From assembly GCA_016871515.1 (NCBI GenBank), contig VHDE01000001.1, positions 81,434-145,433 on the forward strand: a DNA stretch of 64,000 nt, in the 5' to 3' direction. The notes beneath the pieces are model-generated. The model was not told where the DNA came from and made no database searches. It saw only the letters and a program-made list of their open reading frames with translations. The stretch is from Verrucomicrobiota bacterium. Its GTDB lineage: Bacteria > Verrucomicrobiota > Verrucomicrobiia > Limisphaerales > SIBE01. Below are positions 12,230 through 34,413 of this stretch, piece by piece (the stretch's first letter is position 1; each line of letters begins with the position of its first letter). The translations under genes were made by a program, and so were the position numbers.

Positions 12230-12714
12230 GTAGCGCAGAGTTTCACTCTGCCGTATCGCAGACAATCAGCCGCTCTTCGGCGGCGGAAGAATGCAGTAGC
12301 TGACAGTTGCAGCGCCCCTCTCCCTAACCCTCTCCCCATCCGATGGGGCGAGGGAATCGAGCTTTTGCGGTGGGCGATGCCTGATGGACGAACGTGCCCA
12401 GCGCCCAGGTCTTTTCCCTCTCCCCATCCGATGGGGAGAGATTTCTCCGAAACAGGATTTCGCTCATTGCACCCATGAACCACTGCGTCGGTAGGGCGGC
12501 GTTGCCGCGCCGCCGCGATTGCTGTTCGCAGGCTGCGGAGCACCGCAGCCCTACCTTTAGGTTCATGGAGAGGGTTAGGGAGAGGGGCAACATTCACCTT
12601 GCCACTTGGAAGACTTTCAGTCTGCGGCGCTCCCGCAAGATCACAAACGTTGGAACGCCCGAACACGCTGCCGACTGCAAGTCGGCGATAGAGCAGAGTG
12701 AAACTCTGCGCTAC
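12230..12714. repeat. Composite 485-nt MITE/REP-like element filling the DUF1553-DUF1501 intergenic gap
   Basis: Outer inverted repeats GTAGCGCAGAGTTTCACTCTGC (12230-12251) and GCAGAGTGAAACTCTGCGCTAC (12693-12714). Inner arms CCCCTCTCCCTAACCCTCTCCCC / GGAGAGGGTTAGGGAGAGGGG. A nested ATGAACC...GGTTCAT element lies at 12441-12568. Confidence 0.9.
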
Positions 12715-12759
12715 GAATACTGCGGTTGCCTTAATGCTCACGGCCCAGTTCGGTTAAGT

Positions 12760-15975: not shown

Positions 15976-16043
15976 AGTGACCGTGACTATCAACGGTAAT
16001 ACTTACGTTACCAATGATCGCACGTCATGCAGATTTGTTGTTG

Positions 16044-18088: not shown

Positions 18089-21000
18089 TCATCTCAAACT
18101 CTGCAAGAACGCGAGCAGGTCGCGGAATTCGTCACGTGTGAGCGCGTTGTCGAGGCCTTCGGGCATGAGCGAAACGCTGGAGCGTTTGAGTTCTTGAATG
18201 TCTTCCTTTCGCAAAGAGGTTTCGGCTCCACTTGCGTCTCGCAGCACCAATGCATCGCCGGTTTGCCGGGCAATCACGCCATCCAATTCACGTCCATCCT
18301 TTAAGACGGCCGAGTGGCGCTCGTAACTTTGAGCCAGGGTTGAACTCGGAAAAACAATCGATTCGATGAGGTCGCGCCCCGAACGAATCGCGCCGATTTT
18401 GGTTAAGTCCGGGCCGACGAGTCCACCGTGATGGCCGACGCGATGGCACGTGGAACAAGCGGCCTTCGCTCCAAGGAACACGGTTCGTCCGCGGGTTTCA
18501 TCGCCATCCTTGAGCAGTGGCTCGAACGCGGCCAATCGTTGGCTTTCTTCGCCGCGCCGCTTGTTCAGGAATTCGGCAAGTGCATCCGCTTTCGGTTGGA
18601 AACCCGCGCTGCGAGCTCGCGAAACAATTTTTTGCAGTTCTTCATCGGCTGGCCGCCATCCGCGGTTCACCGAATCCCTGAAGTAATCAACCACGGACGC
18701 AAACTGGTCTGGGGAAGCGTCCAGCAAACTCGCCAGCAGCGCGGAGGGTGACACTAGAGTATTTCCGCGAATCTTAGTGAGCAGCGGTTTCAATTGATTG
18801 TCCTTTAGGCGTGAGCGTCCAAGCACTTCGGCGGCGGTGAGTTGAGAGGCAGGACTTGCCTCCGGTCCGACATGTTCGAGAAGAAACTGAAAACGCGTGT
18901 CTGGTAGACCCGCTTGCCGGGTAACAAGCACGCGCAAGGCCTCGAGCCGAAGTGTGGCACTGGCCTGTTCATCATCCACAATCCGAGCGAGCGGTTCGTC
19001 CAGAACCGGCGCCGGCCAAGAACGAGCCAACTGGATGCCTAGCAGTCGAATCCGTTCGGAGGAATGCTCCAGCGCTTGCGCGATGGCGGCATTCCAGGGC
19101 GGCGGGAGTTGACGCAAACTTACGTCCGCCAGGCATTCTAGCAGGAATTGGAGACGCTTGGGAGGAAGGCGCCGATTGAAGATTTCACTGACAAGCTGCT
19201 GCATAGAACTCTGCGATTGAAAAGCCACAATGAGGTTGCGGGCAGCCTCCAAATCTTCGGGAGCAAGGTTGTCTTGGGTGAGGCGCGCGCGAACTAAGCC
19301 GATCGCGTGCTCAACCCATTCCGGATGTTTTTGGAGAATTTGCAGAGCCGTCTTGCGCAGCTCCGAATCCATCGCCGAGACGCGTTCGAGGACCGCAGTC
19401 GCTTCGAGCAGTTTGCCGTGCCGTTGATCGAGCAGCAACAGAGCTGCCTTTTGCACACGCGGGTGCTGGTGACGGAGAGCCAATTTCAGCGCTGCATCGG
19501 CGGCCACGGCGTGGGCTGTGTAGATTAACGCGTGCTCAAGAATTCGGTCCGGGCTCCCATCGGCCAGCGCCGACCAAATAGCTGGCAGCGAATTCTCGTT
19601 TCCGCAATGCGCGAGGCTCTGCGCCGCGGCGAGACGAACGTTCATATTTGTGGTATTAAGGAGGGCGTGCAACTGCGGCGCCGCTTCCCGGTCTTTTCGC
19701 AGAGCCAGCGCCTGCGCCGCGAGGCTGGCCAAAGCAGGTTTATGATTCGCCAATGCGCGGCGGAGGATGGCGCCGGCTGCGCCATCGCGAATAGTTGCGA
19801 TTAACCAGAGAGCGTGTTGCTGGGACGTTAGATTGGCCGAGTTCTCGAGGAGCGATGTGAGCGGACTTAACGCGCCGGCCGCACGCGGTTCGAGCAGATG
19901 CTGCGCGCGTTCGCGCACGGCGGGACGGACATCGTTCAGCAGCTTTACGAGTTCGGCTGGCGATAAAGTGGCCCACTTGATCTGCCGGCCCCAAGGATCG
20001 GAAATTGATGTGGGCGCGTCGTGCCAGACGCGGTAAATTCCGCCTGGCGCTTTCGAACTGCGAATCTTTCCGGTCGGACAATGTTGAACGTACCAACCGC
20101 CCGTATCGACGATTAGCAAACTGCCATCGGCATCTTCGAGAACATCGGACGGATGAAAATCTGGATCGTCACTGCTGACGAACTCAAAGTCTTCCGCTCG
20201 ATACGTCGCGCCGTCGGGGATCAAGACGTGCCGGCCGACTTTCCGCGAATTGTGTTGCGCGGTGTAGAGATTCTCGCGCATTGATGGCGGAAAGTTCCGG
20301 CCGCGATACAGAGTCATTCCACTCAGCGCGACGGCGGGATAAAGGGCAATCGCCGGGAGATAATCTCCGGTGTTCACCGAATTGGTCCCCTTATCACGGT
20401 CCAGTGGATAACGACCGCCTTCGACGAGATGAACCAATGCATCACGAACGCCCCCGTTCGGGAGTTGAAACCAATTATCGGCACCGATGATGTTTCCGTT
20501 CGGCGTGAAGACGACTTCGACGAGATTCTCGAATCCGCGGCAGAGTACTTCTGGCTCGGTTCCATCAGGTTGGCAGCGGATCAGAGCGCCGGATGTTCCC
20601 GAAAGGAGAGTTCCATCGGCTCGCCGCAAACGGTAGCCGTCCGGACTGCCCATCGTCATATAGAGCAAACTGTCGGGGCCGAAGATCAAGCCATGCAAGC
20701 TGCCGTTATCTTTGTGCCCGAACCCGCTCAGGATGACCTTCCGTGACTCGGCGACCTTATCTCCGTCGTGATCTTCGTAAACGACCAAGTCCGGGGGATC
20801 AGCCACATACAATTTGCCGGTGCGCCAAGCGAGCCCCATTGGAAAAACCAGTTTATCTACATAAACGCTGGATCGTTCGAAACGCCCGTCGCCATCTTCG
20901 TCTTCGAGCAAGCGCACTCGGCAATTCCTCGATTGCGCTTCCAATTCGGCGTACAAATCGCCACCCGACGACTCCGTGACAAAGAGGCGTCCGCGTTCGT

Positions 21001-21166
21001 CGAATACAGCGAACATTGGAAAAACAACCTCTGGGTGGCCCGCGACTTTTTCGATGGCGAAGCCCCGCGGGACCTGGTGCTTCGTCTCAAGGAATGGCGC
21101 GCCGCCAACTCGATGTACGCAGAGACAAAGGAGGGCGACGACGATCGGACAGGAACGGCGAGCCAT
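18089..21166 (-). CDS. Multidomain redox protein: beta-propeller 'membrane-bound dehydrogenase'-like domain, HEAT repeats, C-terminal c-type cytochrome
   Basis: Signal peptide from the ATG at 21166 (MARRSCPIVVALLCLCV). The N-terminal propeller region resembles the Pirellula/Verrucomicrobium dehydrogenase N-domain. It has long Ala/Leu-rich HEAT-like repeats and CSTCHRVGHHGGLVGPDLTKIG with a later LMPEGL. Confidence 0.8.
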   Translation of the reverse strand: MARRSCPIVVALLCLCVHRVGGAPFLETKHQVPRGFAIEKVAGHPEVVFPMFAVFDERGRLFVTESSGGDLYAELEAQSRNCRVRLLEDEDGDGRFERSSVYVDKLVFPMGLAWRTGKLYVADPPDLVVYEDHDGDKVAESRKVILSGFGHKDNGSLHGLIFGPDSLLYMTMGSPDGYRLRRADGTLLSGTSGALIRCQPDGTEPEVLCRGFENLVEVVFTPNGNIIGADNWFQLPNGGVRDALVHLVEGGRYPLDRDKGTNSVNTGDYLPAIALYPAVALSGMTLYRGRNFPPSMRENLYTAQHNSRKVGRHVLIPDGATYRAEDFEFVSSDDPDFHPSDVLEDADGSLLIVDTGGWYVQHCPTGKIRSSKAPGGIYRVWHDAPTSISDPWGRQIKWATLSPAELVKLLNDVRPAVRERAQHLLEPRAAGALSPLTSLLENSANLTSQQHALWLIATIRDGAAGAILRRALANHKPALASLAAQALALRKDREAAPQLHALLNTTNMNVRLAAAQSLAHCGNENSLPAIWSALADGSPDRILEHALIYTAHAVAADAALKLALRHQHPRVQKAALLLLDQRHGKLLEATAVLERVSAMDSELRKTALQILQKHPEWVEHAIGLVRARLTQDNLAPEDLEAARNLIVAFQSQSSMQQLVSEIFNRRLPPKRLQFLLECLADVSLRQLPPPWNAAIAQALEHSSERIRLLGIQLARSWPAPVLDEPLARIVDDEQASATLRLEALRVLVTRQAGLPDTRFQFLLEHVGPEASPASQLTAAEVLGRSRLKDNQLKPLLTKIRGNTLVSPSALLASLLDASPDQFASVVDYFRDSVNRGWRPADEELQKIVSRARSAGFQPKADALAEFLNKRRGEESQRLAAFEPLLKDGDETRGRTVFLGAKAACSTCHRVGHHGGLVGPDLTKIGAIRSGRDLIESIVFPSSTLAQSYERHSAVLKDGRELDGVIARQTGDALVLRDASGAETSLRKEDIQELKRSSVSLMPEGLDNALTRDEFRDLLAFLQSLR

Positions 21167-21269
21167 GGCCCGACTGTAGTGGCAGCACCGCCTCCGATCA
21201 AGCGGAGGCGAGGAATTGAGTCGGATTGGGCCCGTCTCGGCGCCACCACTGCTCAAACAGGTGTTTGGT

Positions 21270-21531: not shown

Positions 21532-21834
21532 TCAGATTTCGAAATCGAACACAACGACCGACTCAACGTGGGGCAGGATGAGCGCTTTGACTCTTTCGTG
21601 TTCCGCATGCGGAAGGTAGGCATCTCGGGCGGCCGCATCATGAAAGGTCATGATAAAACCATGGGTGTAACCTTGGTTTAGGTTTTCCGGGCTGGAGTTC
21701 TTACCGGATACATAATCCTCGATGCCGGGAATAGACTCGGTGATATCCATAATCTCGTCGAAGAACTTCTCGATCTGTTCTTCGGACGTTCCATCCTTAA
21801 ATTTGAGGAGCGCTATATGTTTAACTTTTGCCAT
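21532..21834 (-). CDS. Dabb-family stress-responsive alpha/beta-barrel protein
   Basis: MAKVKHIALLKFKDGTSEEQIEKF...GYTHGFIMTFHDAAARDAYLPHAEHERV is the typical Dabb pattern. Confidence 0.8.
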   Translation of the reverse strand: MAKVKHIALLKFKDGTSEEQIEKFFDEIMDITESIPGIEDYVSGKNSSPENLNQGYTHGFIMTFHDAAARDAYLPHAEHERVKALILPHVESVVVFDFEI

Positions 21835-21896
21835 AAGAGTCTTCATCTCCAACGATGAGGTGACGCGGGCCGCCAATGCATTGATGAGGTGACGAA

Positions 21897-22445
21897 TTAC
21901 TTTGCGCCCAGCGCGCCTTCGATTGCAGAAATCACTTCCGGCGCATCCGGTGCAACCTTCGGCTCGAATCTCTTGATTATCTTTCCGTCACGTCCGATCA
22001 GGAATTTGCCGAAGTTCCATTGGATATCGCCCGGGTAAGGGGAGTCCTTCCCCGTCAAAGCTCCGAAGAGTGGATGCTGCCCCGCACCTTTCACGTGCAC
22101 TTTATCGAAAAGCGGAAAGGAAACATTGTACTTAGTGGAGCAGAACGTCTTAATTTCCTCGTTTGTGCCGGGTTCCTGCTGGCCAAAATCGTTGCAAGGA
22201 AATCCAAGGACCTTGAAGCCCTTTGCGTTGTACTTCGTATGCGTGGCTTGCAGCGATTTGTACTGCGGTGTCAAACCACACTGCGAAGCAACGTTGACGA
22301 CAAGCAAGACCTGTCCTTTGTAGGGCTTCAACGAGGTCTCCTTGCCGTTAATGTCCTTGAGTGAAATGTCGTACAGTGATGGCATAGTCTCAGCAATCGC
22401 GAATTGACTGACCCACAGAGCGCAGAGCAAAGCAAAAGTTCTCAT
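21897..22445 (-). CDS. gpx: Glutathione peroxidase (Cys-type), secreted
   Basis: VNVASQCGLTPQY, FPCNDFGQQEP and WNFGKFL motifs. The signal peptide MRTFALLCALWVSQFAIA starts at the ATG at 22445. Confidence 0.9.
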   Translation of the reverse strand: MRTFALLCALWVSQFAIAETMPSLYDISLKDINGKETSLKPYKGQVLLVVNVASQCGLTPQYKSLQATHTKYNAKGFKVLGFPCNDFGQQEPGTNEEIKTFCSTKYNVSFPLFDKVHVKGAGQHPLFGALTGKDSPYPGDIQWNFGKFLIGRDGKIIKRFEPKVAPDAPEVISAIEGALGAK

Positions 22446-22576
22446 GGCCGCGATTATGGTTAAAGGCACGACCTTGTCAACCGTCGCGATCCGTCGCGAT
22501 TGGGATATAAGACTTTCGGTCAGGGAACGTGGCGCGTTTCCATGCCGGATCTCGCGACCGTGCTGGCACGAGCGAC

Positions 22577-22804
22577 AACACGCTGGTCTTCGCGGGCACA
22601 GCCGAAGCAAGCAGCGCGGTTTCGGTGACCCTGACCGCCACGATCAGCGTGATGGACCAGACGATCGGCGCGACGGGGAGCGATCGGTTGGCGGTGGTGG
22701 TGTCAGCGGCAGCGGCGAGCAAGCTGGTGTTTTCTGGGGCGAGTTCGAGCACGGCGGGTGTCAACTCCAGCAGCATCACTGTGACGATCGCCAAGGATGC
22801 GAAG
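22577..22804 (+). pseudogene. Possible fragment of an Ig-like-repeat surface protein
   Basis: There are two partial units of the ..KLVF.G....AG....ITVT..D.. type seen in large adhesins, with no start context and no continuation. Confidence 0.25.
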
Positions 22805-23075: not shown

Positions 23076-24080
23076 CTAATGCGCCGAAGGTTTAGAAGGG
23101 GTGAGCAATCGACCGGTTGCAGCTTCCCAAACTTTAATTTCTCCCGACCAATCGCCGGTAGCAAGCGTGCGGCCATCCGGACTTATCGCCAATGCATAAA
23201 TCCAATCGTCGTGAGCTTGCCATTGCCTGAGGATCGCATCGCTCTCGGAATCGATGACGCGCACGATTCCCTCTTTGCCTGCCGAAAACAACTGCGCGCC
23301 ATCGCGGCTGTAAACGAGCGCAAAGATTGGCCCTTGATGATGCCGGACAATGCGCACCATCCGCCCAATTTCGGGCTGCCAAACGCGCACGGTGTGATCA
23401 TCGCTGCCGGTTGCGCAGAAGGCAGGGCGCGCTTCTCCGCCGAACTCCGAACCTAAGGGTCGAAAGGCGAGGCAATGAACAATCGCCGTATGGTGACTGA
23501 ACGAACGCAACAGCTTTCCTGTGGGTATCTCCCAAACCTTCACCGATCGGTCGGCGCTTGTCGAAACGGCGAGCCGTCCATCCGGGCTGAACGCAACGGC
23601 CAAGACCGGGCCAGCATGACCAGCCATTGACTGCATCGCCACTGATCGTCCTCGCTCACCAATCTTGAACAACTCAACGTTCCCGTCGCTTCCTGCCGCC
23701 GCCATATATTGCGAATCTGGACTGAACGAAACGCTGTTCACCAAATCCGAGCGATTTGTCGCCTGGAACAAGATGGTGTTCGCCCCCCATTGAGTAAGTT
23801 GGACGCCCCCGACGGCGCCGGGGACTCCACCAGCAATCGCCAGGAAATGTCCCTCACGGCCAAACGAGATCGACGAAACACGTGGCAAAACGCATGGCAA
23901 CGCCCATTGCCGCGATCCGTCTTTGACGGAATAGCCCACTACGGAGCCCGGCCCGGAAGCTGTGAGAGTATTGCCATCCGGCGAGAAGGTTAACGCGGTG
24001 ATTGGCAAACGCCGGGAAGCCGGCTGCCCAAACAGCACTTCGCAACTCAAAAACGAAACAAAAAGAATCAGCCACCTCAC
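23076..24080 (-). CDS. Secreted WD40-repeat beta-propeller protein
   Basis: The GTG start overlaps the upstream stop (GTGA at 24077-24080). It has a signal peptide (MRWLILFVSFLSCEVLFG) and about 7 WD40 units (SPDG..LA..G.D..V.VW). Confidence 0.85.
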   Translation of the reverse strand: MRWLILFVSFLSCEVLFGQPASRRLPITALTFSPDGNTLTASGPGSVVGYSVKDGSRQWALPCVLPRVSSISFGREGHFLAIAGGVPGAVGGVQLTQWGANTILFQATNRSDLVNSVSFSPDSQYMAAAGSDGNVELFKIGERGRSVAMQSMAGHAGPVLAVAFSPDGRLAVSTSADRSVKVWEIPTGKLLRSFSHHTAIVHCLAFRPLGSEFGGEARPAFCATGSDDHTVRVWQPEIGRMVRIVRHHQGPIFALVYSRDGAQLFSAGKEGIVRVIDSESDAILRQWQAHDDWIYALAISPDGRTLATGDWSGEIKVWEAATGRLLTPSKPSAH

Positions 24081-25432
24081 ACTAACTCGGAAATGAAACT
24101 TCCTTCCGCCATAATCTTCAGCGGCCGATTTCCACTCGCCAGATATTCTTTGATCGGATCGACTCCAAGTAGTTTGAGAATGGTAAAGGCCGCGTCCTCA
24201 GGCCGCACCGGCCGCTCAACAGGCACCTCACCGTAAGCATCGGTAGCGCCGATCACCTGACCACCACGCACACCACCCCCAGCGAAGCAGACTGAACCAG
24301 CACGAGGCCAATGATCGCGTCCACCCAAACTGTTCAATTTCGGCGTGCGCCCAAATTCGCCCATCAACACAACCAGCGTCGTTTCGAGCAAGCCGCGTTC
24401 TTTCAAATCCGTCAGCAACCCGGAATACGCTCGATCCAACGCCGGCAGCTTGCCGCTGCCAGGGAAAAACGCATCCGGCAGCGCCTTGAAAATCTGTTGA
24501 TGCGTGTCCCAACCAGTATCCACCACTGTCACAAAACGCGCCCCCGCCTCGACCAACCGCCTCGCCAACAAACAGCCCGTGCCGATGCGGCTGCGTCCGT
24601 ACCGGTCGCGATTCGCGGCGCTTTCGCCGGACAGATTGAACGCGGCCTTCGCTTGAGGAGAGGTAATCAGTCGATAAGCCTGTTCGTAAAAAGCATCGCG
24701 GCTTTGCGTGGAAGGCCCTTCTTCGATCGCGCGCGAAAAATCGTCAATGCTCTTCAGCATGCTTTGACGACGTTGTGTTCGGTCAAAACTGACGCCTTCC
24801 GGCGCATCGAGATCGCGGACTTTATAATCACCGCGGGAGGGGTCGCCGCCAACGCTAAACGGCGCATAAGCGCCTGGCAAGTAGCCAGCCTTTGCGGCGC
24901 CTGAATCGCCGCCCACCCCGTCGTTTGGTATGGCCAAATATGGCGGCATCGCTCTGGCAAAGCCGGTCTCATGCGCGACGATGCTGCCGAGACTCGGATA
25001 GTTGACCGCCGGAGTTGGGCGATGACCGGTCAACAGATAACGCGCCCCGGTGTCATGATTGCCTAATTCGTGAGTGAGCGAACGAATCAACGCCACGTCT
25101 TGCATCACCTTGGCTGTGCGGGGCAAATGCTCGCAAATCTGAATGCCGCTCGCGCTTGTCGAGATGGGTTTGAAGTCACCACGAATTTCGTGTGGGGCAT
25201 CCGGTTTCAGGTCGAACATCTCGAGATGGCTCGGACCGCCATCCAGCCAGATGAGAATGCAGGAATTGTCCTTCGGAGACCGAACACGTCGTGCCGAATC
25301 CCCCGCGACTGCTTGAAATCGGAACATGTCAGCGAGGCTCACGCCCAGGCACGAGAGCGTACCCAAGTGCAGGAAATCGCGACGGCTTATTCCATCGCAG
25401 CGGCAATCACGCTGTTTTAGTTTTGTTTTCAT
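24077..25432 (-). CDS. DUF1501 domain protein, Tat-type signal
   Basis: ATG at 25432. SRRDFLHLGTLSCLGVSLA signal; LMGEFGRTPK and GGRDHWPRAGSVCFAGGG blocks. Confidence 0.9.
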   Translation of the reverse strand: MKTKLKQRDCRCDGISRRDFLHLGTLSCLGVSLADMFRFQAVAGDSARRVRSPKDNSCILIWLDGGPSHLEMFDLKPDAPHEIRGDFKPISTSASGIQICEHLPRTAKVMQDVALIRSLTHELGNHDTGARYLLTGHRPTPAVNYPSLGSIVAHETGFARAMPPYLAIPNDGVGGDSGAAKAGYLPGAYAPFSVGGDPSRGDYKVRDLDAPEGVSFDRTQRRQSMLKSIDDFSRAIEEGPSTQSRDAFYEQAYRLITSPQAKAAFNLSGESAANRDRYGRSRIGTGCLLARRLVEAGARFVTVVDTGWDTHQQIFKALPDAFFPGSGKLPALDRAYSGLLTDLKERGLLETTLVVLMGEFGRTPKLNSLGGRDHWPRAGSVCFAGGGVRGGQVIGATDAYGEVPVERPVRPEDAAFTILKLLGVDPIKEYLASGNRPLKIMAEGSFISELV

Positions 25433-25445
25433 ACTGTTGTTTGCC

Positions 25446-25476
25446 GTAACGCAGAGTTGCACTCTGCTGTATCACC
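25446..25476. repeat. Family hairpin module (GTAACGCAGAGT-TGC-ACTCTGCTGTATCACC) inside a 50-nt intra-operon gap
   Basis: 7-bp core stem with a 3-nt loop. The flanks are identical to the terminal repeats of the composite elements. Confidence 0.85.
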
Positions 25477-25482
25477 ACGAGC

Positions 25483-27672
25483 CTAGTGATTATACGCGAA
25501 CTCGCGAGAATTCAACAACGCCCAGAGCAAGTCCTCAAGTGCCTCCGCGCGGTCTGATGTCGCCACAAGCGTTTCCCATTGCGCCGTCTCATGCGATTCC
25601 GGCGATCGGCCCATCGTCGCGAAATAGAAGCTGGTGATGATTTCCGGCATTGGCCGGTTCGCATCGAGATATTTTGCCACAGCTTGTTTCAACTTCCCGT
25701 TAATTGTTGGCCCGTTGATCAAATGCAATGCCTGTGACAATCCGCCGCCGCTTTGCCCAGCACTTTCGCAAACCGCTTCACGCTCGCAGCGCCCGAAAAC
25801 ATCGAGCGCGTACGACTGGACAGCCGGATCCAGAAGCTGCACCGCGCGCGTTCCCTCCGGATACCCGGAATAATCGCCGGCGATTCCGGTGGCCTGCGAC
25901 ACCGCATCGGCGAGCACCTGAGCACTTAGCGGTTTGGCATAGGCGCTCGCAAACAAGCGATCGTCCAGGCGATTGACTTCATTCGCTCGCGACGACAACT
26001 GGTACGTGCGCGAGGCGGCGATCGTCCGAACAAGCCTTCTCAGATCGTAACCGCCCTTGATAAAGTCGCTCACCAAAGCTTCCAGCAATGCCGGGTTCGA
26101 AGCGGGGTTCGTCACGCGCAAATCGTCCACCGGCTCAATCAGTCCGCGACCCATCAACTCCTTCCACACGCGATTGACCAGCGCACGGCCCAAAGCTCGG
26201 TTCTCATTCGACCTCAACCATTCCGCGAAATGAGCGCGCCGGTCGGAGGGCAGCTCACTCGGTTCACTGGCGCCGAGCGGTTTCGCGTTCATCCGCTGGT
26301 TGGTTTTGGGATGCAGGACTTCGCCATGAGTATTCAGTGAAACAGTCTGGCCATCGACGGTCGTCCGCGCGAAGTACGCGGCGAAGCGGTGATAATCCTC
26401 CTGCGTCCATCGATCCGTCGGATGATTATGGCAACGGGCGCACGCGACTCGAATTCCGAGCAAGGCCCGGCTGGCATAATCCGCCATATCGCGAGGATCC
26501 TGCTTTAACCGATGGAAGTTAGCGGGACCATACTCAGCCGCGTTTCCCTGGGCAGTCAAAAGTTCGCTGACCAATTTATCCAGCGGCGTGTTGCTCGCGA
26601 CGTGACGACGCAGCCAAGAGTAATACGCTCGCGCGGGAGCATCGCCGAGGCGTTTGGAATGAATCAACAGCAAGTCAGCCAGTTTCATCGTCCAAAAATC
26701 GATGAACCCGTCGCTGGCCAGCAGATCGTCGATGACCCGTTCGCGCGCTGCCGCGTCCCTTGGAGAGTTCAGGAACGCGCGCACATCCGCTTCGGTGGGC
26801 AAAGCTCCGATCAGGTCAAGATGAATGCGCCGATAAAATTCGCTGTCATTGCTTAGCGGCGAAGGGGGAAGCCGCAAACGTTTCAACTCCTTTAAGACCC
26901 ACTCATCGACGAGCGTGCGCGTGGCAAATTCGATCTTGTCTAGCGGCGTTTCCTGAAATGGCACGGCGACACGAACGGCCGCGACCTGCCCAGAGTAACG
27001 CACCATAATCGCCGTGACACCGCGGCGTCGCACGGTGACTGCGCCCTGGTTATCTACTTCCGCCAAGCTGTCGTCGTTTGAGCTGTATAACGCCAAGCCG
27101 GAAACCTCTTGTTGGCCGCCATCAGAAAGTAACGCCGTCACGCGGATGCGGAATGTGCTGTTCGTTCGTTCGAGCAAAACATCGCTCGGCTGCACCTCGA
27201 TTCTCTCGACTCGCAAACTCCGGTTGCCGTACGGCGCGCCACTGGCAATCCAATCCGCGATTTTTGCGCAAGCCTCGGAGTCGCGCTTGATTCGCCTTCC
27301 ACCTTCGTGCTCGATTTGCCGTGTCGGCTTAAGCAGCACGAGACTCCGGGCCGGGGTCGCGAGATCGATTCGGCGCCCTTCCAATTCGCGCGTAATTGCT
27401 TCGTAGTCGCTTTCTGGATCGTAACCGAGCAAACTGAGCCGGAAGCCCCCTTGCCCGACCGCCGCTCCGTGGCATGCGCCCGAGTTGCATCCGGCTTTCG
27501 TCAACAGCGGAAGAATTTGCGTGGGAAAATCGAGGCGTCCTATGTTCGGACCGTCGGTAGCACAGGCTGTCAGCACGCCCAGGGAAATGCAGAACGCCGA
27601 GAAGACGCGAGACAGCCAAAACGGTAGTGCGCAACGCTCCGTACGGTTCACGGGGAAGGGCCCAAGGCTCAT
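25483..27672 (-). CDS. DUF1549 / Ig-like (BIG2) / DUF1553 secreted protein with an N-terminal CNSGACH motif
   Basis: The ATG at 27672 overlaps the stop of the upstream gene (ATGA). Features include signal peptide, GCNSGACHGAAVGQGGFRLSLLGYDP, BIG2-like segment (VTALLSDG..EVSGLALYSSNDDSLAEVDNQGAVTV), CARCHNHPTDRW, and a DUF1553-type C-terminus. Confidence 0.85.
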   Translation of the reverse strand: MSLGPFPVNRTERCALPFWLSRVFSAFCISLGVLTACATDGPNIGRLDFPTQILPLLTKAGCNSGACHGAAVGQGGFRLSLLGYDPESDYEAITRELEGRRIDLATPARSLVLLKPTRQIEHEGGRRIKRDSEACAKIADWIASGAPYGNRSLRVERIEVQPSDVLLERTNSTFRIRVTALLSDGGQQEVSGLALYSSNDDSLAEVDNQGAVTVRRRGVTAIMVRYSGQVAAVRVAVPFQETPLDKIEFATRTLVDEWVLKELKRLRLPPSPLSNDSEFYRRIHLDLIGALPTEADVRAFLNSPRDAAARERVIDDLLASDGFIDFWTMKLADLLLIHSKRLGDAPARAYYSWLRRHVASNTPLDKLVSELLTAQGNAAEYGPANFHRLKQDPRDMADYASRALLGIRVACARCHNHPTDRWTQEDYHRFAAYFARTTVDGQTVSLNTHGEVLHPKTNQRMNAKPLGASEPSELPSDRRAHFAEWLRSNENRALGRALVNRVWKELMGRGLIEPVDDLRVTNPASNPALLEALVSDFIKGGYDLRRLVRTIAASRTYQLSSRANEVNRLDDRLFASAYAKPLSAQVLADAVSQATGIAGDYSGYPEGTRAVQLLDPAVQSYALDVFGRCEREAVCESAGQSGGGLSQALHLINGPTINGKLKQAVAKYLDANRPMPEIITSFYFATMGRSPESHETAQWETLVATSDRAEALEDLLWALLNSREFAYNH

Positions 27673-28745
27673 TTCTTCAGCTTGTCCACAAAGGCTTGTC
27701 CGGCCTTGTGCGCGTACGGCGTTCCGTACTTCAAATGCAACACGCGCGTCCAACCGCCAATGGCCTGTTTCGTGAGGGCCTGATCCCCTTTCACGTAGTG
27801 TTCGACATCAGCCAGCACTCTGTCGACGGTTGCATCATCATTCGTCGGCTGAATGAACCGGCGCAGCAAGCCGATCAATCGTTGATCGGTCGGCGCCGCC
27901 CCCGGAAGTTCTTCCTTTAGATTGCCTTTGCCGGCCTCGGTTTGCGGCTTAGGCAGCCCAGCGTCTAATTCGGCGCGCAATGATTGCACTTCGGCAATGA
28001 GCAGCTTAACGGCATCGCGCAGGCCCGCTTCGCTTTCCAGATTCAGCTTCGAGAAGTCGGTCGCCGCTCGACCTGCAGCGGGCCTGGCCATTTCAGAACG
28101 CATTGCGTCGCGCCCCATCGCCCGGCCGGTGCTCTCACGGCGACGAGCTTCCAGGTCCGCCGCGCGCGGAGGATCGCGATCACCGGCGGTCGTTGCCAGA
28201 GCTTCGATGATTTTAGGCGCATCGGCGATGCCGGGTTGAACCAAAGCGAAATTCGCGGTCACGCGGTCCTCCTTAGCTACGACAACCGTCAAGAGACATT
28301 CCTTGTTCAATCCATAATTTCCAGGTCCTTCGGCGCCGTCCACTGACAAGCTGAATCTCGACTGCAAGCGCAATGATCTCGCGACCGCCGGGAACCGTTG
28401 TTCCGCTGCCAAACGGTCTCCGGATAGAAAAACCATTTCCGTTCGGAGCAACTGCTTTCGTTCGGCGCCATATTGATCGATGGTCTGCAACAGCGGCGCC
28501 ATCGATCGTTCAACGCCATGAACAAACACCAGCGCGATTGGCTTGCCGCCATTCTCGGCAATCGGGTCAATCTTGCTTTTTCCGGCGGCGGCGCCGAGTT
28601 CAACGACCTTGAAGGAGGTGATCTTTTCTCCAGGCTGCGGGCCCGAATAAACCTTTTCCTTTGCTTGCCCAAAACAGGTTCCAATCGTCGCAAATGCGGC
28701 GATGCAATAAACGGCGAAAACGTTCAATTTCGTCATCAGTTTCAT
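27669..28745 (-). CDS. Secreted hypothetical protein; N-terminal thioredoxin-fold-like region without CxxC, Arg-rich linker, conserved C-terminal helical domain
   Basis: Signal peptide MKLMTKLNVFAVYCIAAFATIGTCFG. The KPIALVFVHGVERSMAPLL segment is reminiscent of redoxin strand-helix topology but lacks catalytic Cys. It is the first gene of the coupled operon. Confidence 0.6.
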   Translation of the reverse strand: MKLMTKLNVFAVYCIAAFATIGTCFGQAKEKVYSGPQPGEKITSFKVVELGAAAGKSKIDPIAENGGKPIALVFVHGVERSMAPLLQTIDQYGAERKQLLRTEMVFLSGDRLAAEQRFPAVARSLRLQSRFSLSVDGAEGPGNYGLNKECLLTVVVAKEDRVTANFALVQPGIADAPKIIEALATTAGDRDPPRAADLEARRRESTGRAMGRDAMRSEMARPAAGRAATDFSKLNLESEAGLRDAVKLLIAEVQSLRAELDAGLPKPQTEAGKGNLKEELPGAAPTDQRLIGLLRRFIQPTNDDATVDRVLADVEHYVKGDQALTKQAIGGWTRVLHLKYGTPYAHKAGQAFVDKLKK

Positions 28746-28888: not shown

Positions 28889-29338
28889 TCAAGGCCTCGT
28901 CATCTCAAAGATGCCATGATCGTGTTTGGATCGGTAGGTGGAGAAAAAGTTGGTCGGAGTTGCGCGGCCGGAATAAAAGTACTGTCCGCCGGCGAGCCAG
29001 CCCAGATCAGCTTCCCCTTGAAACGTAAAGAGATCGTTTGTCCTCTGCACGTTCAACACAACTGTATATCCGAAGCTCAGTATCTTGCGGTACTTTGCGT
29101 GAAAGCGCGCTTCGTACTTTCCGGGCGAGCTCTGCGAAACGAGACAGCGCAAGCGCCCATTGTGTCCGTTGACTTCGCTCAACCAGCGCCCATCCCAGCG
29201 GCCTTGAATATCATTCGCCGGAACTGGATTTGCGGCAGCTCGCTTCCAATCGCGGTTAAAAGTCGAACAACCGCCCGCAAGGAGCAGCAGCGGTAGAATC
29301 ACGAGCGCGCAGAGACGCTGAAAGAAGCTCCTCCCCAT
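28889..29338 (-). CDS. Small lipoprotein, unknown function
   Basis: The ATG at 29338 gives MGRSFFQRLCALVILPLLLLAGGC (lipobox LAGGC). The longer track ORF extends into repeats. Confidence 0.7.
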   Translation of the reverse strand: MGRSFFQRLCALVILPLLLLAGGCSTFNRDWKRAAANPVPANDIQGRWDGRWLSEVNGHNGRLRCLVSQSSPGKYEARFHAKYRKILSFGYTVVLNVQRTNDLFTFQGEADLGWLAGGQYFYSGRATPTNFFSTYRSKHDHGIFEMTRP

Positions 29339-29344
29339 GACCCT

Positions 29345-29540
29345 GCGCGGCAGGATAGGCGTCCTGCCTGTCCTGCCAAACGGTTTCATGGCTCCAATGA
29401 TTGAAAATGTGTTTCGGAGACATCTTTCCGATGAACGCGGTAGCAGCGCAGCGTTTGCGCTTCTTCTGCGTTTGGAGCTCCAGCGACGTCGGACATTGAA
29501 GCGGCGTAAACGCCGCGCTCCTGCGGCCAGGTTCATGCAG
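29345..29540. repeat. Cluster of family repeat modules
   Basis: GGCAGGATAGGCGTCCTGCCTGTCCTGCC (also at 41830-41855), AAAATGTGTTTCGGAGACATC (a variant of AAATTTTGTTTCGGAGAAGTC), and GAAGCGGCGTAAACGCCGCGCTCCTGCGGCCAGGTTCAT (also at 58424-58456). Confidence 0.8.
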
Positions 29541-29550
29541 AAGCTCGATT

Positions 29551-32500
29551 TCATTGCGTCAAAAATGTTCCGTCGTTCGTCTCCACGCGAATGTGGTCCG
29601 GCAACGCGCGTGCGTCCAGTTTCACAATGAACGTATGGATTCCGGCGTCCAGTTCCGCAGAAATGGAACTTGCAGCCGTGACAGGACGGCCATCAATCCA
29701 CAGTCCGAGATGCGATTTGCCGACCAGATCCAAATGAACCTTGCCTGCTTTGGCTGTCTGAAACCGAGCCGCGGCATAAATCGCCGAAGGATGGCGTCCG
29801 GCAACGGATTTTAATTTCGCTTCCAATTCCTGTTTCGCCAGGCGCCCATCAACGAAGGCTGAGGCTTGGCTCCAGCCGCGACCGTCTAAGCCTTCTTTTA
29901 CCACCCGTTCATCGCCGAACTGCGCGCTGTCGATCGTCAAGGCAAAGAGTTTCCAAGCTCGCGCCACGCTGCCTTTAGACGCATCGTAAGATCCAGGCTT
30001 TCCAAGTTCAGAGAGGAACCGATAAAGGTCGACTTGCTCGCCGTGGCTCAAGGCATCGAGAAGGCCTGAAGGCATAAGGGATCCTCCAATCGCGCGCCTT
30101 GCAATATTGTTCTTGGCCACGGTGAGTTCTTTGTTCGTGGCATCCACGATGACTAACTGGTCGTTGGTTTCGCGCGCCAAGATTCCGGTGAGCTCCTGGC
30201 CATCCTTCGTTTCAACCATGACCGAATGATAGCCCTCCTTTACTTTTCGATTCGGATAGAGCAGTGATTCGATCAGATAATCGACCGGCGCGCTCGCGCC
30301 AATTGAAGTCAAATCGGGTCCAGCCTTTCCGCCAACACCGCCGATCGCGTGGCAGGTGACGCACGCTAGCTCCTGACGGCGAAAGATGTTTTCGCCCCGG
30401 GCCGGATCGCCGGTCTGAATCGTGGCTGCCGCGATCTTCTTAATCTCCTCTGCCGTCAAATTCGTCGTCTCATCTTCGAGATTTCCGCTCCGGGCAAGCG
30501 CGAGGACAAGGTCGGGCTCGCTGCGGCCGCCTTCGCGCGCGACGCGCATTCCGGCCTTGGCGACAGCCGGTGACAACCCGCTCTTGGGCAAAGCACGAGC
30601 CAGGACTGGGGCCGCCCCTTTGTTGCTGAGCAAAGAACGCCAGAGACCTAAGGCCTCCGATTCGTCCGTGGTATCAGCCAACACTTCCACAACGGTCGGC
30701 GCGGACTTCTGCAAATCAAGCGCGGCGAGGGCTTGGACAGCTTGACGCCGGATGGCCGGCCTTTGATCCTTCGCGGTGAGAGGTTGCAAGCGGGCAATGA
30801 CCTCCGGGCCACCGATTTCCCGCAAGCTCTCAATAGCCGCTCGTGCAAGTGAATTCGGCGCCGAAGCATCCGCAGCTTGACTCAACATAGCACCGGTCAA
30901 GCGGTTCAGCTTCCACGATCCAACCAATCGGATGGCCTCTTCGCGCACTTTGTCGTCCGAGCTTTTCAAGAGGCCTGAGACATTGCCGAGATCACCCGAA
31001 GGCTTGGCTTTGCGATTCCGCGCTGCCTGTGCCAGAGCCGACAGCGCGCGCGCGCTTGCCGGCTGGTCGAGCCGCGAGGCCAAAATCAAGTCGAACAAAT
31101 GGCGAAGTTCCTTTTCCGTGCCGGCTTTTGCGATTAATTCCAACCACGGACCGCTGCCATCTTTCGGGATCGGTCGCGATTCGAGCAATTGACCGAGAAC
31201 CGATCCGGCGAGAGCCGGTTCGATGGCAAGCAATCCAAATTCAAGCTGCTTCTCGCGGCCTTCGATCTTCCAACTCCCTGATTTGATCGCTTCCACCCAA
31301 GGCTTCGCAAGATCATTGATGCTGAGCCAAACGCCGTAATCGAGGAACGGGTCCATTGTCATATCGAGAGCACCCAGGACCAATTCGGCCGAGCGCGCCG
31401 TGGGCAAATGGCTCAATGCGCGCATAGCTTCGAGACGGACGCGCGGATGTTGATCGGCAATCCGCTTCTCCAAGAGATCGCCCGCATTACTCAATCGATT
31501 GTGCCAGAAACGAACGACTCGCGTCGCGGCTGCTCGAATGCGGCCATCTTCCGCCTCGAGAAGTTTCCCCAGTAGAGTCGGTTCGATTACGTCGATCGAT
31601 TGATACATCCAAAGCGCTTCGAGCAAGGATTTCTCGGAGGTTTGATTCTTCACCCAGCTCGCTAAGTCCGGGGCAATAGCAGGTCCGCGCTCTGTCAGAA
31701 CGCGGTGCGCCCGCCGGCGAACGTACGCATTCGGTGAGAGAAGATGATCGAACAATTGCGCATTCGCGGCGTCCACCAGTTTGACCTGCGGCACCAACGG
31801 ACGACCTTTCGCGCTGATCCGCCAAATCCGGCCATGCTCATGATCTCGGCGCGGATCACGGAAATCGACTTCACCATGTTGAATGATTGGGTTCGACCAA
31901 TCGGCGACATAAAGCGCGCCATCCGGACCCAACTTCACATCGATCGGACGGAATGTGACGTCGCTGGTCCGGAGCAAATCCGGCATCTCTTTCGTGACGT
32001 AAGCCGAGCCTTGTGCGCTAATCGCAAACCGAACCACGCGATGCGCGCGAAAATCGCACGTGATCATATTGCCCTGCCAATCGGGCGGGAAATGTTCACT
32101 CTGCATCACTTCCACGCCGCAGAATTTCGGATAACTGCCGGGACTGACACTTCCGAGAATTCGGCGCGCGCCCGCATAGGTAACGTACATGGCGCCCGGA
32201 ACGCCGTAATTGATCCCTTGCCCTCCCGCGCCATCAGTGACGAACGACTGGCCATACGCATCGAAATCGTGTCCCCAGGTGTTAACGAAGCCTTTCAGGA
32301 AAATCCCGAGCTCCATCGTGGGCGGGCGAAGGTGAAGAATCCCCCCGCTGTTCAGGCGCACCACGCCGTGGGGCGTTTCGATGTGGCTGTGAATGTAAAT
32401 TGATTGGTTGAAATAAAGCTGTCCGTCATGCCCCCAACGGAGTGTGTGAATGATGTGATGGGTGTCTTCCGTGCCAAAACCCGACAGGACGATTCGCTTC

Positions 32501-34281
32501 TGATCGGAGCGACCGTCACCGTTGGTGTCTTTGAAATGAAGCAATTCCGTGCTCTGGCCTACATAAACGCCGCCATCACCAGGTTCGATGCCGGTGGGAA
32601 TCAATAAGCCTTCCGCAAAAACGGTTGATTTGTCCGCTTTGCCATCGTGATCGGTATCTTCGATGACGACAATCTTGTCATTGGCAACCTGCCCGGGCTG
32701 AATTTGCGGATAGACGGCCGAACTGGCAATCCAGAGACGGCCTTGCGGATCGAAATTCATTTGGATCGGCTTCGCTAACTGAGGGTCTTCGGCAAACAAT
32801 GTGACCTCGAAGCCGTCGGCCACCTGGAATTGTGGCAAGGCCTTCACTTGCCCCGCCGGAGCGACAACTGACGAACGCGTGCCGTCGCTATTCGGCGGCG
32901 TAACTTTCTCTTTTTCTTTGGCAGGCGATTGAATCGCATTCAAGTCGCTGACCTGAGACAGTTCGTAAACGTGAGTGGCGGGCTTGCGCAAAGTCGCGAT
33001 GAGCGCTTCCACGTCGCTGACCAGAGGATCGAACATTGGAATCTCTTTGGCGTTCTGGCCCTGCTCGTATTTGCGAAAGCCGAACAAGTAAGTTTCGTTC
33101 TGCGGACGCCAGCGATGGAAGTACAGTTCGTTTTTCTTGATCACCGCTTGGCGCAGCTTTTCGGCTCGATCGGAAGCAGGCCCGCCGCTGAGAATTATCT
33201 GCGGGCTTTGCCAATCAGACTCACGCAGAGCGACAATCGGGTGACCATCGATCTTCAAGGCGTACAACCCCGGCGTCAGACCGATAAACTGCAGCAAGTT
33301 CGGCGGCGTTACACGCGGTATGTTGCCTTCGTCGGCGGGCGGAGCAGGCTCGGCTGGGAAATCCAAGGTTCCTTTGAACTTCACGAAATCCGGCTTCCGC
33401 TCCAGGTCTTCCACTTTCATACCTTGACTCCCATCGCGCACAGTTCCTTGGGCTGTGATTCCGACACGCCAGGAATTTGGCGTCCATCCCAGTCCCCATT
33501 CGATCACCTCTGCGAGCCGCCAGTACCCGAGCGCGTTCAAGTGAATGCCATTATCGGTTAGCGGGAGAGGCGGATTGGTCGTCGTTCCATCCTTCAGCAT
33601 ATCGAACACCGGAACGAAGTGAGCTTGCCGTTGCTCGGCAACTTCGCGAATGGCTTTGGTGTACAGGGCCAGCTGTTCGTTATGCCGAGTTGGATCTGGC
33701 AAAGGCGGCGGCAATTTCTCGTGTCGAATCGGACTCAGCAATATGAACCGGACGTTCGCCGAGATAGCTTTGATTGCATCCATCAATTTCCCGAGGTCCT
33801 CCTTGAACTTCGGCGCCCCTGCTTCGCCTTCAAAGGAAGCCGCCATGCCATAGCCAAGGATGGCAACCGTCGGCTTGACCGCCGCGAGATGCTCTTTCAA
33901 GCGGTCGAATCCTTTTTCGGGCGGATCAAAACCGGCGCGCGATTCGCCCAGGACGGTGTCCGCGCTCCAGCCTAAGTTTCGAAAAATGAGATTGCGGTCT
34001 GGATACCGGCTGATCAATCGGGCTTCCACGTAGCCATAAAGCTGCTCGCGTTCAATGAGCGTGTCTCCAAGCAGCGCCACTCGATCACCATCGTGAAACT
34101 CGAACGGTGATCGCTGCCGCGTTTCAGGCGCGGCGCTGGCGGGCGGTGCTGCTTGGGCAACGCGCACAGCGGGTGCAGCACCGGGTGATTTCGTAGTTTC
34201 TTGGGAACGGACGGCAACGACGAGGAAACCACTCAATAGTAGTGGAACTAAGCAGGAATTCATCTTGAGCAATCTACTCAT
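29551..34281 (-). CDS. Giant multidomain protein: SGNH/GDSL-like hydrolase, dehydrogenase-like beta-propeller, HEAT repeats, c-type cytochrome, C-terminal beta-sandwich
   Basis: Start at the ATG at 34281 or 34263 (signal peptide MNSCLVPLLLSGFLVVAV). Features in order:
- a GDTLIE block and later SGNH-like blocks
- a propeller region paralogous to 18089-21166
- HEAT-like repeats
- CVTCHAIGGVGGKAGPDLTSIG followed by LMPSGL
- a 190-aa C-terminal domain. Confidence 0.8.
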   Translation of the reverse strand: MSRLLKMNSCLVPLLLSGFLVVAVRSQETTKSPGAAPAVRVAQAAPPASAAPETRQRSPFEFHDGDRVALLGDTLIEREQLYGYVEARLISRYPDRNLIFRNLGWSADTVLGESRAGFDPPEKGFDRLKEHLAAVKPTVAILGYGMAASFEGEAGAPKFKEDLGKLMDAIKAISANVRFILLSPIRHEKLPPPLPDPTRHNEQLALYTKAIREVAEQRQAHFVPVFDMLKDGTTTNPPLPLTDNGIHLNALGYWRLAEVIEWGLGWTPNSWRVGITAQGTVRDGSQGMKVEDLERKPDFVKFKGTLDFPAEPAPPADEGNIPRVTPPNLLQFIGLTPGLYALKIDGHPIVALRESDWQSPQIILSGGPASDRAEKLRQAVIKKNELYFHRWRPQNETYLFGFRKYEQGQNAKEIPMFDPLVSDVEALIATLRKPATHVYELSQVSDLNAIQSPAKEKEKVTPPNSDGTRSSVVAPAGQVKALPQFQVADGFEVTLFAEDPQLAKPIQMNFDPQGRLWIASSAVYPQIQPGQVANDKIVVIEDTDHDGKADKSTVFAEGLLIPTGIEPGDGGVYVGQSTELLHFKDTNGDGRSDQKRIVLSGFGTEDTHHIIHTLRWGHDGQLYFNQSIYIHSHIETPHGVVRLNSGGILHLRPPTMELGIFLKGFVNTWGHDFDAYGQSFVTDGAGGQGINYGVPGAMYVTYAGARRILGSVSPGSYPKFCGVEVMQSEHFPPDWQGNMITCDFRAHRVVRFAISAQGSAYVTKEMPDLLRTSDVTFRPIDVKLGPDGALYVADWSNPIIQHGEVDFRDPRRDHEHGRIWRISAKGRPLVPQVKLVDAANAQLFDHLLSPNAYVRRRAHRVLTERGPAIAPDLASWVKNQTSEKSLLEALWMYQSIDVIEPTLLGKLLEAEDGRIRAAATRVVRFWHNRLSNAGDLLEKRIADQHPRVRLEAMRALSHLPTARSAELVLGALDMTMDPFLDYGVWLSINDLAKPWVEAIKSGSWKIEGREKQLEFGLLAIEPALAGSVLGQLLESRPIPKDGSGPWLELIAKAGTEKELRHLFDLILASRLDQPASARALSALAQAARNRKAKPSGDLGNVSGLLKSSDDKVREEAIRLVGSWKLNRLTGAMLSQAADASAPNSLARAAIESLREIGGPEVIARLQPLTAKDQRPAIRRQAVQALAALDLQKSAPTVVEVLADTTDESEALGLWRSLLSNKGAAPVLARALPKSGLSPAVAKAGMRVAREGGRSEPDLVLALARSGNLEDETTNLTAEEIKKIAAATIQTGDPARGENIFRRQELACVTCHAIGGVGGKAGPDLTSIGASAPVDYLIESLLYPNRKVKEGYHSVMVETKDGQELTGILARETNDQLVIVDATNKELTVAKNNIARRAIGGSLMPSGLLDALSHGEQVDLYRFLSELGKPGSYDASKGSVARAWKLFALTIDSAQFGDERVVKEGLDGRGWSQASAFVDGRLAKQELEAKLKSVAGRHPSAIYAAARFQTAKAGKVHLDLVGKSHLGLWIDGRPVTAASSISAELDAGIHTFIVKLDARALPDHIRVETNDGTFLTQ

Positions 34282-34318
34282 AAGCCGCCTCCATTTCCTT
34301 CGAGCACGCACTGGGACA

Positions 34319-34413
34319 ATGAAACATTGCGCCGGTAGGGCGGCGTTGCTGCGCCGCCAAACGTCGGGGTTTATCGAGGCGGCGCAGCAACGCCGCCCTG
34401 CCTTCAGGTTCAT
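34319..34413. repeat. ATGAAAC...GGTTCAT-bounded hairpin element
   Basis: The stem GTAGGGCGGCGTTGCTGCGCCGCC (34335-34358) pairs with GGCGGCGCAGCAACGCCGCCCTGCC (34378-34402). Confidence 0.9.

Follow-up and report, generated by a model that had tools for sequence, protein, structure and literature searches.

The 64,000-nucleotide stretch of contig VHDE01000001.1 from a Verrucomicrobiota bacterium (the whole stretch is called the window below) carries on its minus strand, between positions 23076 and 28745, four consecutive open reading frames (ORFs) that we named A, B, C, and D in the order A-B-C-D. Gene A encodes a thioredoxin-like protein lacking redox cysteines, gene B a large protein that combines an Ig-like domain with the PSCyt2/DUF1549 and PSD1/DUF1553 families, gene C a DUF1501 protein with a twin-arginine leader, and gene D a WD40 propeller. 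We found the same four genes, in the same order and on the same strand, in most of the related loci that could be examined, and we consider it very probable that A-B-C-D forms one conserved functional unit. A preliminary description of this DNA had proposed four co-directional, closely packed genes, each with an export signal, and this was borne out: the ORF coordinates agree, the two start/stop overlaps and the hairpin-bearing gap between B and C can all be read in the sequence (Table 1), and the hydrophobic N termini of A, B, and D and the twin-arginine motif of C are kept in their orthologues. JGI and Logan, whose gene calling on identical contigs was independent, arrived at the same boundaries for A, B, and C (358, 729, and 451 residues).

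The one wider junction of the module, the B-C spacer, contains the hairpin GCAGAGTGCAACTCTGC, which belongs to a repeat found at about nine sites of the window (14 strand matches with three or fewer mismatches, versus 0.15 expected by shuffling); the repeat consensus is roughly (hairpin cNGACTGaAAGTCNg) CGATACA GCAGAGTGAAACTCTGC GYTACGA. Because the folding energy of the spacer hairpin is unremarkable (z -1.35) and a T-run is absent after it, we read the hairpin not as a terminator but as a copy of this dispersed element, which resembles repetitive extragenic palindromic (REP) sequences. The terminator scan found no terminator-like site between the module genes, and the promoter and terminator scan around the module gave nothing informative. 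Since the gap between B and C is 1 to 30 nt in 35 of 50 orthologous loci, the longer gap in the window probably reflects insertion of the repeat.

To follow the module through other genomes, we scanned one genome per GTDB species with protein A, obtained 372 relatives, and examined 81 unique loci, of which 56 had at least 5.6 kb of sequence downstream of A and made up the synteny test set. The complete A-B-C-D set, in the same order and on the same strand, was present in 46 of these 56 loci, and four shorter contigs were also complete. When all ORFs of the 46 loci were clustered, only families A to D recurred, and neither a fifth conserved gene nor a conserved flank was found. The tight junctions recur as well: a 4-nt start/stop overlap is available between A and B in 37 of 50 orthologous loci and between C and D in 34 of 50, with a 1-nt C/D overlap in five more. 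Conserved overlaps of this kind are typical of subunits made in fixed proportion. In the scan with A, D lies directly downstream of C in 46 loci, and a reciprocal search from D gave the same picture, as D orthologues are preceded by A-B-C. The arrangement thus points to a self-contained, co-inherited operon whose genes are probably co-expressed.

Two loci have an A-B-C copy without D, one in the metagenome-assembled genome (MAG) F1-120-MAGs170 (L008) and one in the Pedosphaera MAG Baikal-deep-G226 (L025), and the linker of A is deleted in both. Because lone D orthologues lie on other contigs of the same two assemblies (L112 with L008, L114 with L025), we consider D to be unlinked rather than lost in these genomes; the Pedosphaera MAG also has a complete A-B-C-D copy (L001). 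At a further locus (L034:141-833), ~165 residues from the start of an A homologue and the final ~85 of a DUF1501 protein are encoded in one ORF, apparently what a deletion has left of the module or else an artefact of assembly.

The degree of sequence conservation sets this module apart from the other DUF1501 pair in the window, a two-gene pair of the canonical type (Table 1). Protein C is 54 to 88% identical to its module orthologues from Verrucomicrobiota, Planctomycetota, and Acidobacteriota, versus 31% to the canonical DUF1501 protein of the window, and both B and C are far nearer to the module orthologues than to that pair. This high conservation suggests a fixed, specific function for the module rather than the diversifying roles that have been proposed for the two-gene paralogues.

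Outside Verrucomicrobiota, the complete module was found in two Planctomycetota, the cultured Humisphaera borealis (complete genome, CP063458.1), whose A, B, C, and D are 47, 54, 65, and 40% identical to the window proteins, and a MAG (L133). A Pirellulales MAG (L132) has C and D only, overlapping by 4 nt, with no adjacent A-B. In Acidobacteriota the genes are permuted and partly fused: on a Logan contig (SRR23258159; locus L140, in the Acidobacteriota cluster of P0201), the order is C (54% identity), D (31%), a fused A::B gene, and an extra free A-type domain of 203 residues. The 923-residue A::B protein joins the thioredoxin-like domain of A directly to a full B-type protein with its CX4CH motif, and the fusion was recovered in 24 independent sequences on contigs of up to 6 Mb. 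D and A::B overlap by 4 nt at L140, and C and D are separated by 3 nt. Genes that are found both reordered and fused give classical evidence for joint action of their products, and the fusion predicts contact between A and B. The A::B fusion, the permuted Acidobacteriota version, and the spread of the module over three phyla are new.

Table 1. Coordinates of the module, its predicted domains, the dispersed repeat, and other features of the window.
Feature	Window position	Strand	Residues or length	Remarks
Gene A	27669-28745	-	358 aa	
A, putative signal peptide			~1-26	
A, thioredoxin-fold domain	28176-28658	-	~30-190	
A, variable coiled-coil linker			~195-263	
A, conserved 4-helix C-terminal domain			~285-358	
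ATGA junction	27669-27672	-		A stop overlaps B start; read from sequence
Gene B	25483-27672	-	729 aa	counted from the ATG overlapping the A stop
B, PSCyt1-like N-domain, after putative signal peptide	27469-27489 (motif)	-	C62-x4-C67-H68	motif invariant
B, Ig-like Big_2 domain	26962-27210	-	~155-237	
B, PSCyt2/DUF1549	26428-26442 (motif)	-	255-437	C411-x2-C414-H415, motif invariant
B, PSD1/DUF1553			478-701	C629 and C635 invariant
B-C spacer	25433-25482	-	50 nt	one dispersed REP-like hairpin repeat copy at 25451-25467
Gene C	24077-25432	-	451 aa	
C, twin-arginine signal	25370-25387	-	16-21	SRRDFL
C, DUF1501 domain			56-450	
GTGA junction	24077-24080	-		C stop overlaps D GTG start; read from sequence
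Gene D	23076-24080	-	334 aa	GTG start
D, single WD40 beta-propeller, after putative signal peptide			~26-326	no other domain
Hairpin repeat sites	519, 12235, 12693, 16248, 21500, 25451, 35763, 49952, 50058			dispersed, intergenic, REP-like
Canonical pair, DUF1501	10727-12166	-	479 aa	
Canonical pair, PSCyt1/PSCyt2/PSD1	12760-15993	-	1077 aa	
Giant exported protein	18089-21256	-		DUF7133, HEAT repeats, C-terminal cytochrome c; flanks module
Giant exported protein	29551-34413	-		DUF7133, HEAT repeats, C-terminal cytochrome c; flanks module
S46 peptidase	475-2730			
HEAT + WD40 protein	2852-5341		829 aa	
BamA/Omp85	36706-39066			
DnaB helicase	39309-40772			
PhoD-like phosphatase	52988-54937			

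The identities given to the four proteins in the preliminary description held up in the domain and structure searches, with the Ig-like domain of B falling below threshold by sequence and confirmed structurally. Protein D is the simplest case, as it matches WD40 (PF00400) in Pfam with an E-value of 2.6e-47 (157.7 bits); five repeats pass singly, and whole-propeller families span residues 29 to 326. Apart from its putative signal peptide, the protein is a single propeller. As to the export of A, B, and D, their N termini are hydrophobic and lead into Ala-rich cleavage regions, both in the window proteins and in 46 to 49 of about 50 orthologues, the hydrophobic segment being found in 49 of 49 A, 46 of 50 B, and 46 of 50 D sequences. 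We ruled out that A and B are lipoproteins, as the IGTC and LTAC sequences near the cleavage sites of the window proteins have no Cys in the orthologues.

Protein A had no match in Pfam at an E-value of 10 or below (PPC, Redoxin, and AhpC-TSA included) and none in NCBIfam, and sequence and profile searches of the Protein Data Bank (PDB) with A returned coiled-coil noise only. Its AlphaFold2 (AF2) model has a mean confidence (pLDDT) of 88, and a Foldseek search with it gave 513 matches at an E-value of 1e-3 or below, the 50 best listed all being thioredoxin-fold proteins. The top matches of the N-terminal domain are of the TlpA/DsbE/ResA/Bcp/Tpx type (best E-value 1.9e-7; TM-score up to 0.83; root-mean-square deviation (rmsd) from 3gl3 of 2.5 Å). 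Protein A shares this fold with TlpA, ResA, CcmG (DsbE), Bcp, and Tpx, and like them it is periplasmic, but it differs in having neither a CxxC motif nor a peroxidatic Cys at the N terminus of helix 1 and in its additional coiled-coil and 4-helix C-terminal domain. The linker between the two domains is deleted in some orthologues. At the CxxC position A has V78-E79-R80-S81, of which E79, R80, and S81 are invariant. Among 62 homologues the invariant residues are H76, E79, R80, S81, D136, E139-G-P-G-N143, N147, C150, Q170-P-G, and D175, and of these H76, E79-S81, D136, E139-GPG-N143, N147, and Q170-PG make up a conserved polar patch where the active site classically lies. C150 is the sole ortholog-invariant Cys of A and is lost in more distant relatives.

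The family defined by A is large. We counted at least 659 close homologues, and all of those bearing a source name are called hypothetical; at 50% identity the family as a whole comprises 1134 representative clusters. A weak Redoxin match by sequence was seen in one relative. A-type domains also occur at the C terminus of BlaR1/M56 sensors and tetratricopeptide repeat (TPR) proteins, beside ExbD-like and EF-hand regions, and as tandem duplicates (P0134, P0237, P0261, P0194, P0172, P0124, and P0131). Because it is fused to unrelated partners and occurs in tandem copies, the A-type domain is apparently a general periplasmic binding module. Family A is unannotated and is represented by neither a Pfam nor an NCBIfam model, and its thioredoxin-fold identity and its size are new.

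Protein C matches DUF1501 (PF07394) over nearly the full profile (positions 2 to 389 of 390; E-value 8.2e-108; 361.5 bits versus a cut-off of 27) and had no match in NCBIfam. Its leader, SRRDFLHLG (residues 16-24), aligns with the twin-arginine translocation (Tat) leader of a high-potential iron-sulfur protein (HiPIP), and R17, R18, and F20 are invariant in 21 orthologues. Invariant positions of the alignment are R17, R18, G65-G-P, H69, D74, H126, W308-D-x-H311, E359-F-G-R, and G371-R-D-H374. Sequence and profile comparison with the PDB gave marginal matches to sulfatases and LtaS only, and no DUF1501 structure was found. This weak local similarity (phmmer/hmmsearch E-values of 0.04 to 0.5) lies in the C-terminal half of C, where H311 and E359-F-G align with sulfatase blocks that hold metal and catalytic residues; in hhalign, the C profile and a sulfatase from locus L012 matched in one block with a probability of 9%. 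Unlike the sulfatases, C lacks the C/S-x-P-x-R formylglycine motif. DUF1501 presumably belongs to the alkaline-phosphatase clan of Pfam, and the candidate active-site residues of C (D64, T120/H126, D309/H311, E359, and D373/H374) are invariant or nearly so.

Protein B matches PSCyt2/DUF1549 (PF07583; E-value 8.5e-42; 143.9 bits versus a cut-off of 29.8) followed by PSD1/DUF1553 (PF07587; 1.3e-37; 129.9 bits versus 28.5) in Pfam and has no match in NCBIfam. By sequence, the Big_2 match (PF02368) is weak (E-value 0.009; 16.4 bits, under the cut-off of 22.8), while phmmer matched the domain to the Ig region of a teneurin-like protein (1.3e-7) and Foldseek to LigA/LigB of Leptospira and to Big_2-CBM56 domains (E-value 1.8e-4; rmsd 1.2 Å), so that by structure it is a Big_2-type Ig-like beta-sandwich. 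The Ig domain is the only part of B that Foldseek matched in the PDB, which leaves the helical PSCyt2/PSD1 body, like the N-domain, without a solved structural relative; that this body has no counterpart in the PDB is new. Over its first 100 residues B aligns collinearly with the cytochrome c-like domain of a canonical PSCyt1 (BLASTP E-value 0.003), and this domain is therefore a divergent PSCyt1 relative, scoring 13.6 bits against the PSCyt1 (PF07635) cut-off of 22 and carrying C-x4-C-H in place of CXXCH. The invariant CX4CH form of this putative PSCyt1 domain is new. A second invariant motif, C411-A-R-C-H-N-H417-P in the ortholog alignments, is of the CxxCH-x-H type.

The AF2 model of B (pLDDT 78; pTM 0.80) falls below a confidence of 50 exactly at the invariant Cys/His motifs (residues 64-75, 116-125, 414-419, and 632-649), as might be expected where folding depends on a cofactor or a partner. 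Both Cys motifs are present and invariant, while a cytochrome c fold was not matched in the Foldseek search with the B model. We suggest that the CX4CH and CXXCH motifs may bind a cofactor, either haem c or a metal, after export.

The results reported above are best explained if the four proteins, once exported, form a single working assembly in the periplasm. In this proposal, C would fold in the cytoplasm, probably loaded with metal, and leave by the Tat pathway to become the catalytic subunit, a hydrolase or transferase of the alkaline-phosphatase/sulfatase superfamily. Protein B, exported by the Sec route, would be its obligatory partner, with a large all-helical PSCyt2/PSD1 body and an Ig-like domain. 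Protein A would be a pseudo-thioredoxin, unable to carry out thiol chemistry but with the fold and a conserved polar pocket at the former CxxC site retained. Joined to B, it would play the part of an adaptor or binding subunit, and D, a propeller of seven-blade size, would serve as a scaffold. The preliminary description had suggested a multi-subunit periplasmic machine rather than two isolated enzymes, and had named as one test whether the two outer genes stay with the core pair in related genomes. The retention of A and D beside B-C in 46 of 56 loci means that this test did not refute the idea, and the overlaps, the three phyla, and the fusion support the single unit, while the complex itself is a prediction. 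That the unit includes a physical periplasmic complex, and that C is its catalytic subunit, we hold jointly as a tentative proposal whose chances fall a little short of even.

Several observations weigh against this proposal. The set beside A is incomplete in 10 of the 56 loci (A alone in five, A-B in three, and A-B-C in two), although C-D resumes past a 4.5-kb insertion in one of the three A-B loci. The thioredoxin-like domain of A is also found fused to BlaR1/M56, TPR, ExbD, and EF-hand partners, as expected of a general-purpose rather than a dedicated part, and the repeat-bearing gap in the window indicates that tight coupling at the B-C junction is dispensable. The argument for contact among A to D comes entirely from comparative evidence, and the suggested catalytic role of C draws on weak similarity (E-value 0.04; hhalign 9%) and on the clan membership that we assumed.

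Electron transfer was proposed for proteins of this kind by Kamneva et al. (2012), and in such a module B would be a two-haem c-type cytochrome, with one haem at the N-terminal CX4CH and the other at the CXXCH of PSCyt2, exchanging electrons in either direction with C as a Tat-exported redox enzyme, and A and D would be accessory proteins. Both C62-x4-C67-H68 and C411-x2-C414-H415 are invariant in every orthologue, the N-domain of B is collinear with canonical PSCyt1, and in the alignment the Met of PSCyt1 is no more than about one position away from invariant His122. The Sec-type signal of B resembles those of c-type cytochromes, the collapse of the B model at the Cys/His motifs is possible for cofactor sites, and a cofactor would be compatible with the Tat route taken by C. 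On the other hand, no part of B gave a cytochrome c match in Foldseek, the PSCyt1 match is sub-threshold, DUF1501 resembles hydrolases rather than known redox enzymes, and A has no redox cysteines. The Cys motifs of B are equally explicable as disulfides or a metal site, and haem in a PSCyt protein of any kind was not found in the literature searched. On this balance we regard an electron-transfer module as unlikely.

The four proteins could instead belong to a co-regulated pathway without a complex, acting successively or independently on a common periplasmic substrate. Synteny and overlapping junctions prove co-inheritance, and probably co-expression, but not contact, and the looser arrangements described above, with D unlinked from A-B-C (L112 and L114) and C-D without adjacent A-B in a Pirellulales genome (L132), are what such a pathway would allow. 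The A::B fusion, however, argues for physical proximity of A and B at least, and none of A, D, and the Ig domain of B, all of them classic interaction modules, bears a catalytic signature. In all paralogues of Planctomycetes, Verrucomicrobia, and Chlamydiae (PVC), moreover, a B-type gene is paired with a C-type gene (PMC3542564). A pathway of separately acting proteins seems to us improbable, to about the same degree as electron transfer.

It is much less probable that A, instead of being a subunit of the finished machine, is a dedicated maturation factor, a ResA/CcmG-like holdase without its former redox cysteines that presents the unusual CX4CH site of apo-B to the haem-attachment machinery. 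Such a role would suit the presence of the apocytochrome thiol reductases ResA and DsbE/CcmG among the closest structural relatives of A and the conserved pocket at the would-be CxxC site, and it would suit the distribution of the motif, as all examined B-type proteins with A adjacent or fused carry CX4CH, not CXXCH, while the canonical, partner-less paralogue of the window carries CXXCH. The ResA match is, however, unspecific, because TlpA-like folds are all alike and peroxiredoxins score equally; the stable A::B fusion and the extra conserved C-terminal domain of A suggest a permanent association; A-type domains occur in many non-cytochrome contexts; and haem binding by B itself is unproven. 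Finally, accidental adjacency of common paralogues, which a second DUF1549/1553-DUF1501 pair (10727-15993) and another WD40 gene (2852-5341) in the window might have suggested, is already refuted by the same four orthologues standing in the same order in 46 of 56 loci across phyla with variable flanks and by the fused and permuted versions, and its probability is negligible.

A bolder form of the single assembly would be a novel periplasmic four-subunit enzyme common to the three phyla, in which a Tat-exported DUF1501 metallo-enzyme and a haem-binding B of novel fold, with a non-canonical bis-His haem c site at CX4CH and a further site at CXXCH, are held together by the pseudo-thioredoxin A and the WD40 scaffold D. 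We think it doubtful that this is the case, but if true it would represent a redox-linked hydrolase or oxidase without a characterised analogue and would give the huge DUF1501, DUF1549, and DUF1553 families their first function.

These families have been noticed before. Kamneva et al. (2012; Genome Biol Evol 4:1375; PMC3542564) described modules of DUF1501 and PSCyt/PSD1 proteins in PVC genomes in a computational study, and both these families and the WD40-DUF1501 neighbourhood were remarked on by Hu et al. (2017; PMC5587647) and He et al. (2017; PMC5615132). Few paralogous families of Planctomycetes and Verrucomicrobia are as large as DUF1501, DUF1549, and DUF1553, and in the papers searched (PMC3542564, PMC5615132) they have been assigned no function since their description, in agreement with what the preliminary description had said of the core pair. 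The literature searched contained no functional study of DUF1800/DUF1501 or "planctomycete cytochrome" proteins and no paper naming both DUF1501 and DUF1553.

Of the four genes in the "most complex" PVC-conserved cluster of Kamneva et al., one encodes a Tat-DUF1501 protein, one a PSCyt1/Big_2/PSCyt2/PSD1 protein, one a PSCyt1/WD40 protein, and one a secreted protein that has weak PPC domains along with conserved but uncharacterised regions; the authors suggested electron transport. With this similar cluster on record, the module is not wholly undescribed, and its presentation in the preliminary description as an undescribed system was overstated. The module and the cluster have in common the Tat-DUF1501 protein, a PSCyt1-like/Big_2/PSCyt2/PSD1 protein, a WD40 protein, and an uncharacterised protein with a signal peptide, and the Tat-DUF1501 plus PSCyt1/Big_2/PSCyt2/PSD1 combination is present here with a divergent PSCyt1 part. 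They differ in that D is a bare 334-residue propeller with neither room nor motif for PSCyt1, A has no PPC match at an E-value of 10 or below, and the N-domain of B is sub-threshold for PSCyt1 and has CX4CH in place of CXXCH. The text of that paper has no mention of A's thioredoxin fold, of a fusion between A and B, or of the Acidobacteriota version. By description, which was the basis of the comparison, the module is either the published cluster under another annotation or a sister type of it.

The canonical pair of the window offers another comparison, as it consists of the same two core families, adjacent and co-directional, and its DUF1501 protein also has a twin-arginine leader. It outscores the module in Pfam (546 versus 361 bits for DUF1501 and 316 versus 130 for PSD1), and its B-type protein has a true CXXCH PSCyt1 and no Ig domain. 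The canonical pair comprises two genes only; thioredoxin-like and WD40 neighbours were not looked for beside it. The 829-residue WD40 protein was ruled out as a "PSCyt1/WD40" partner, since its N terminus consists of HEAT repeats.

Most DUF1501/DUF1549/DUF1553 copies are fast-evolving two-gene pairs that are hard to study. The module is highly conserved, with four fixed partners, a natural A-B fusion, and, newly, a cultured host for experiments, Humisphaera borealis, and these properties make the function of the orphan DUF1501, DUF1549, and DUF1553 families directly testable.

The module is flanked by two giant exported proteins that end in cytochrome c (Table 1), one of which also has a GDSL lipase domain. 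A functional link to these proteins was rejected as unlikely, since similar genes lie near the module in only four of the 34 related loci looked at first. The minus strand also carries, downstream of D (21532-22610), genes for a glutathione peroxidase that has a hydrophobic segment and is long extended at its N terminus and then for a Dabb stress-responsive barrel protein, which are not conserved beside the module elsewhere. Just upstream of A, also on the minus strand, lies a 221-residue ORF (28889-29554) that has no family match and overlaps the stop of the 1620-residue gene by 4 nt; JGI and Logan leave it uncalled and call two short genes on the opposite strand instead.

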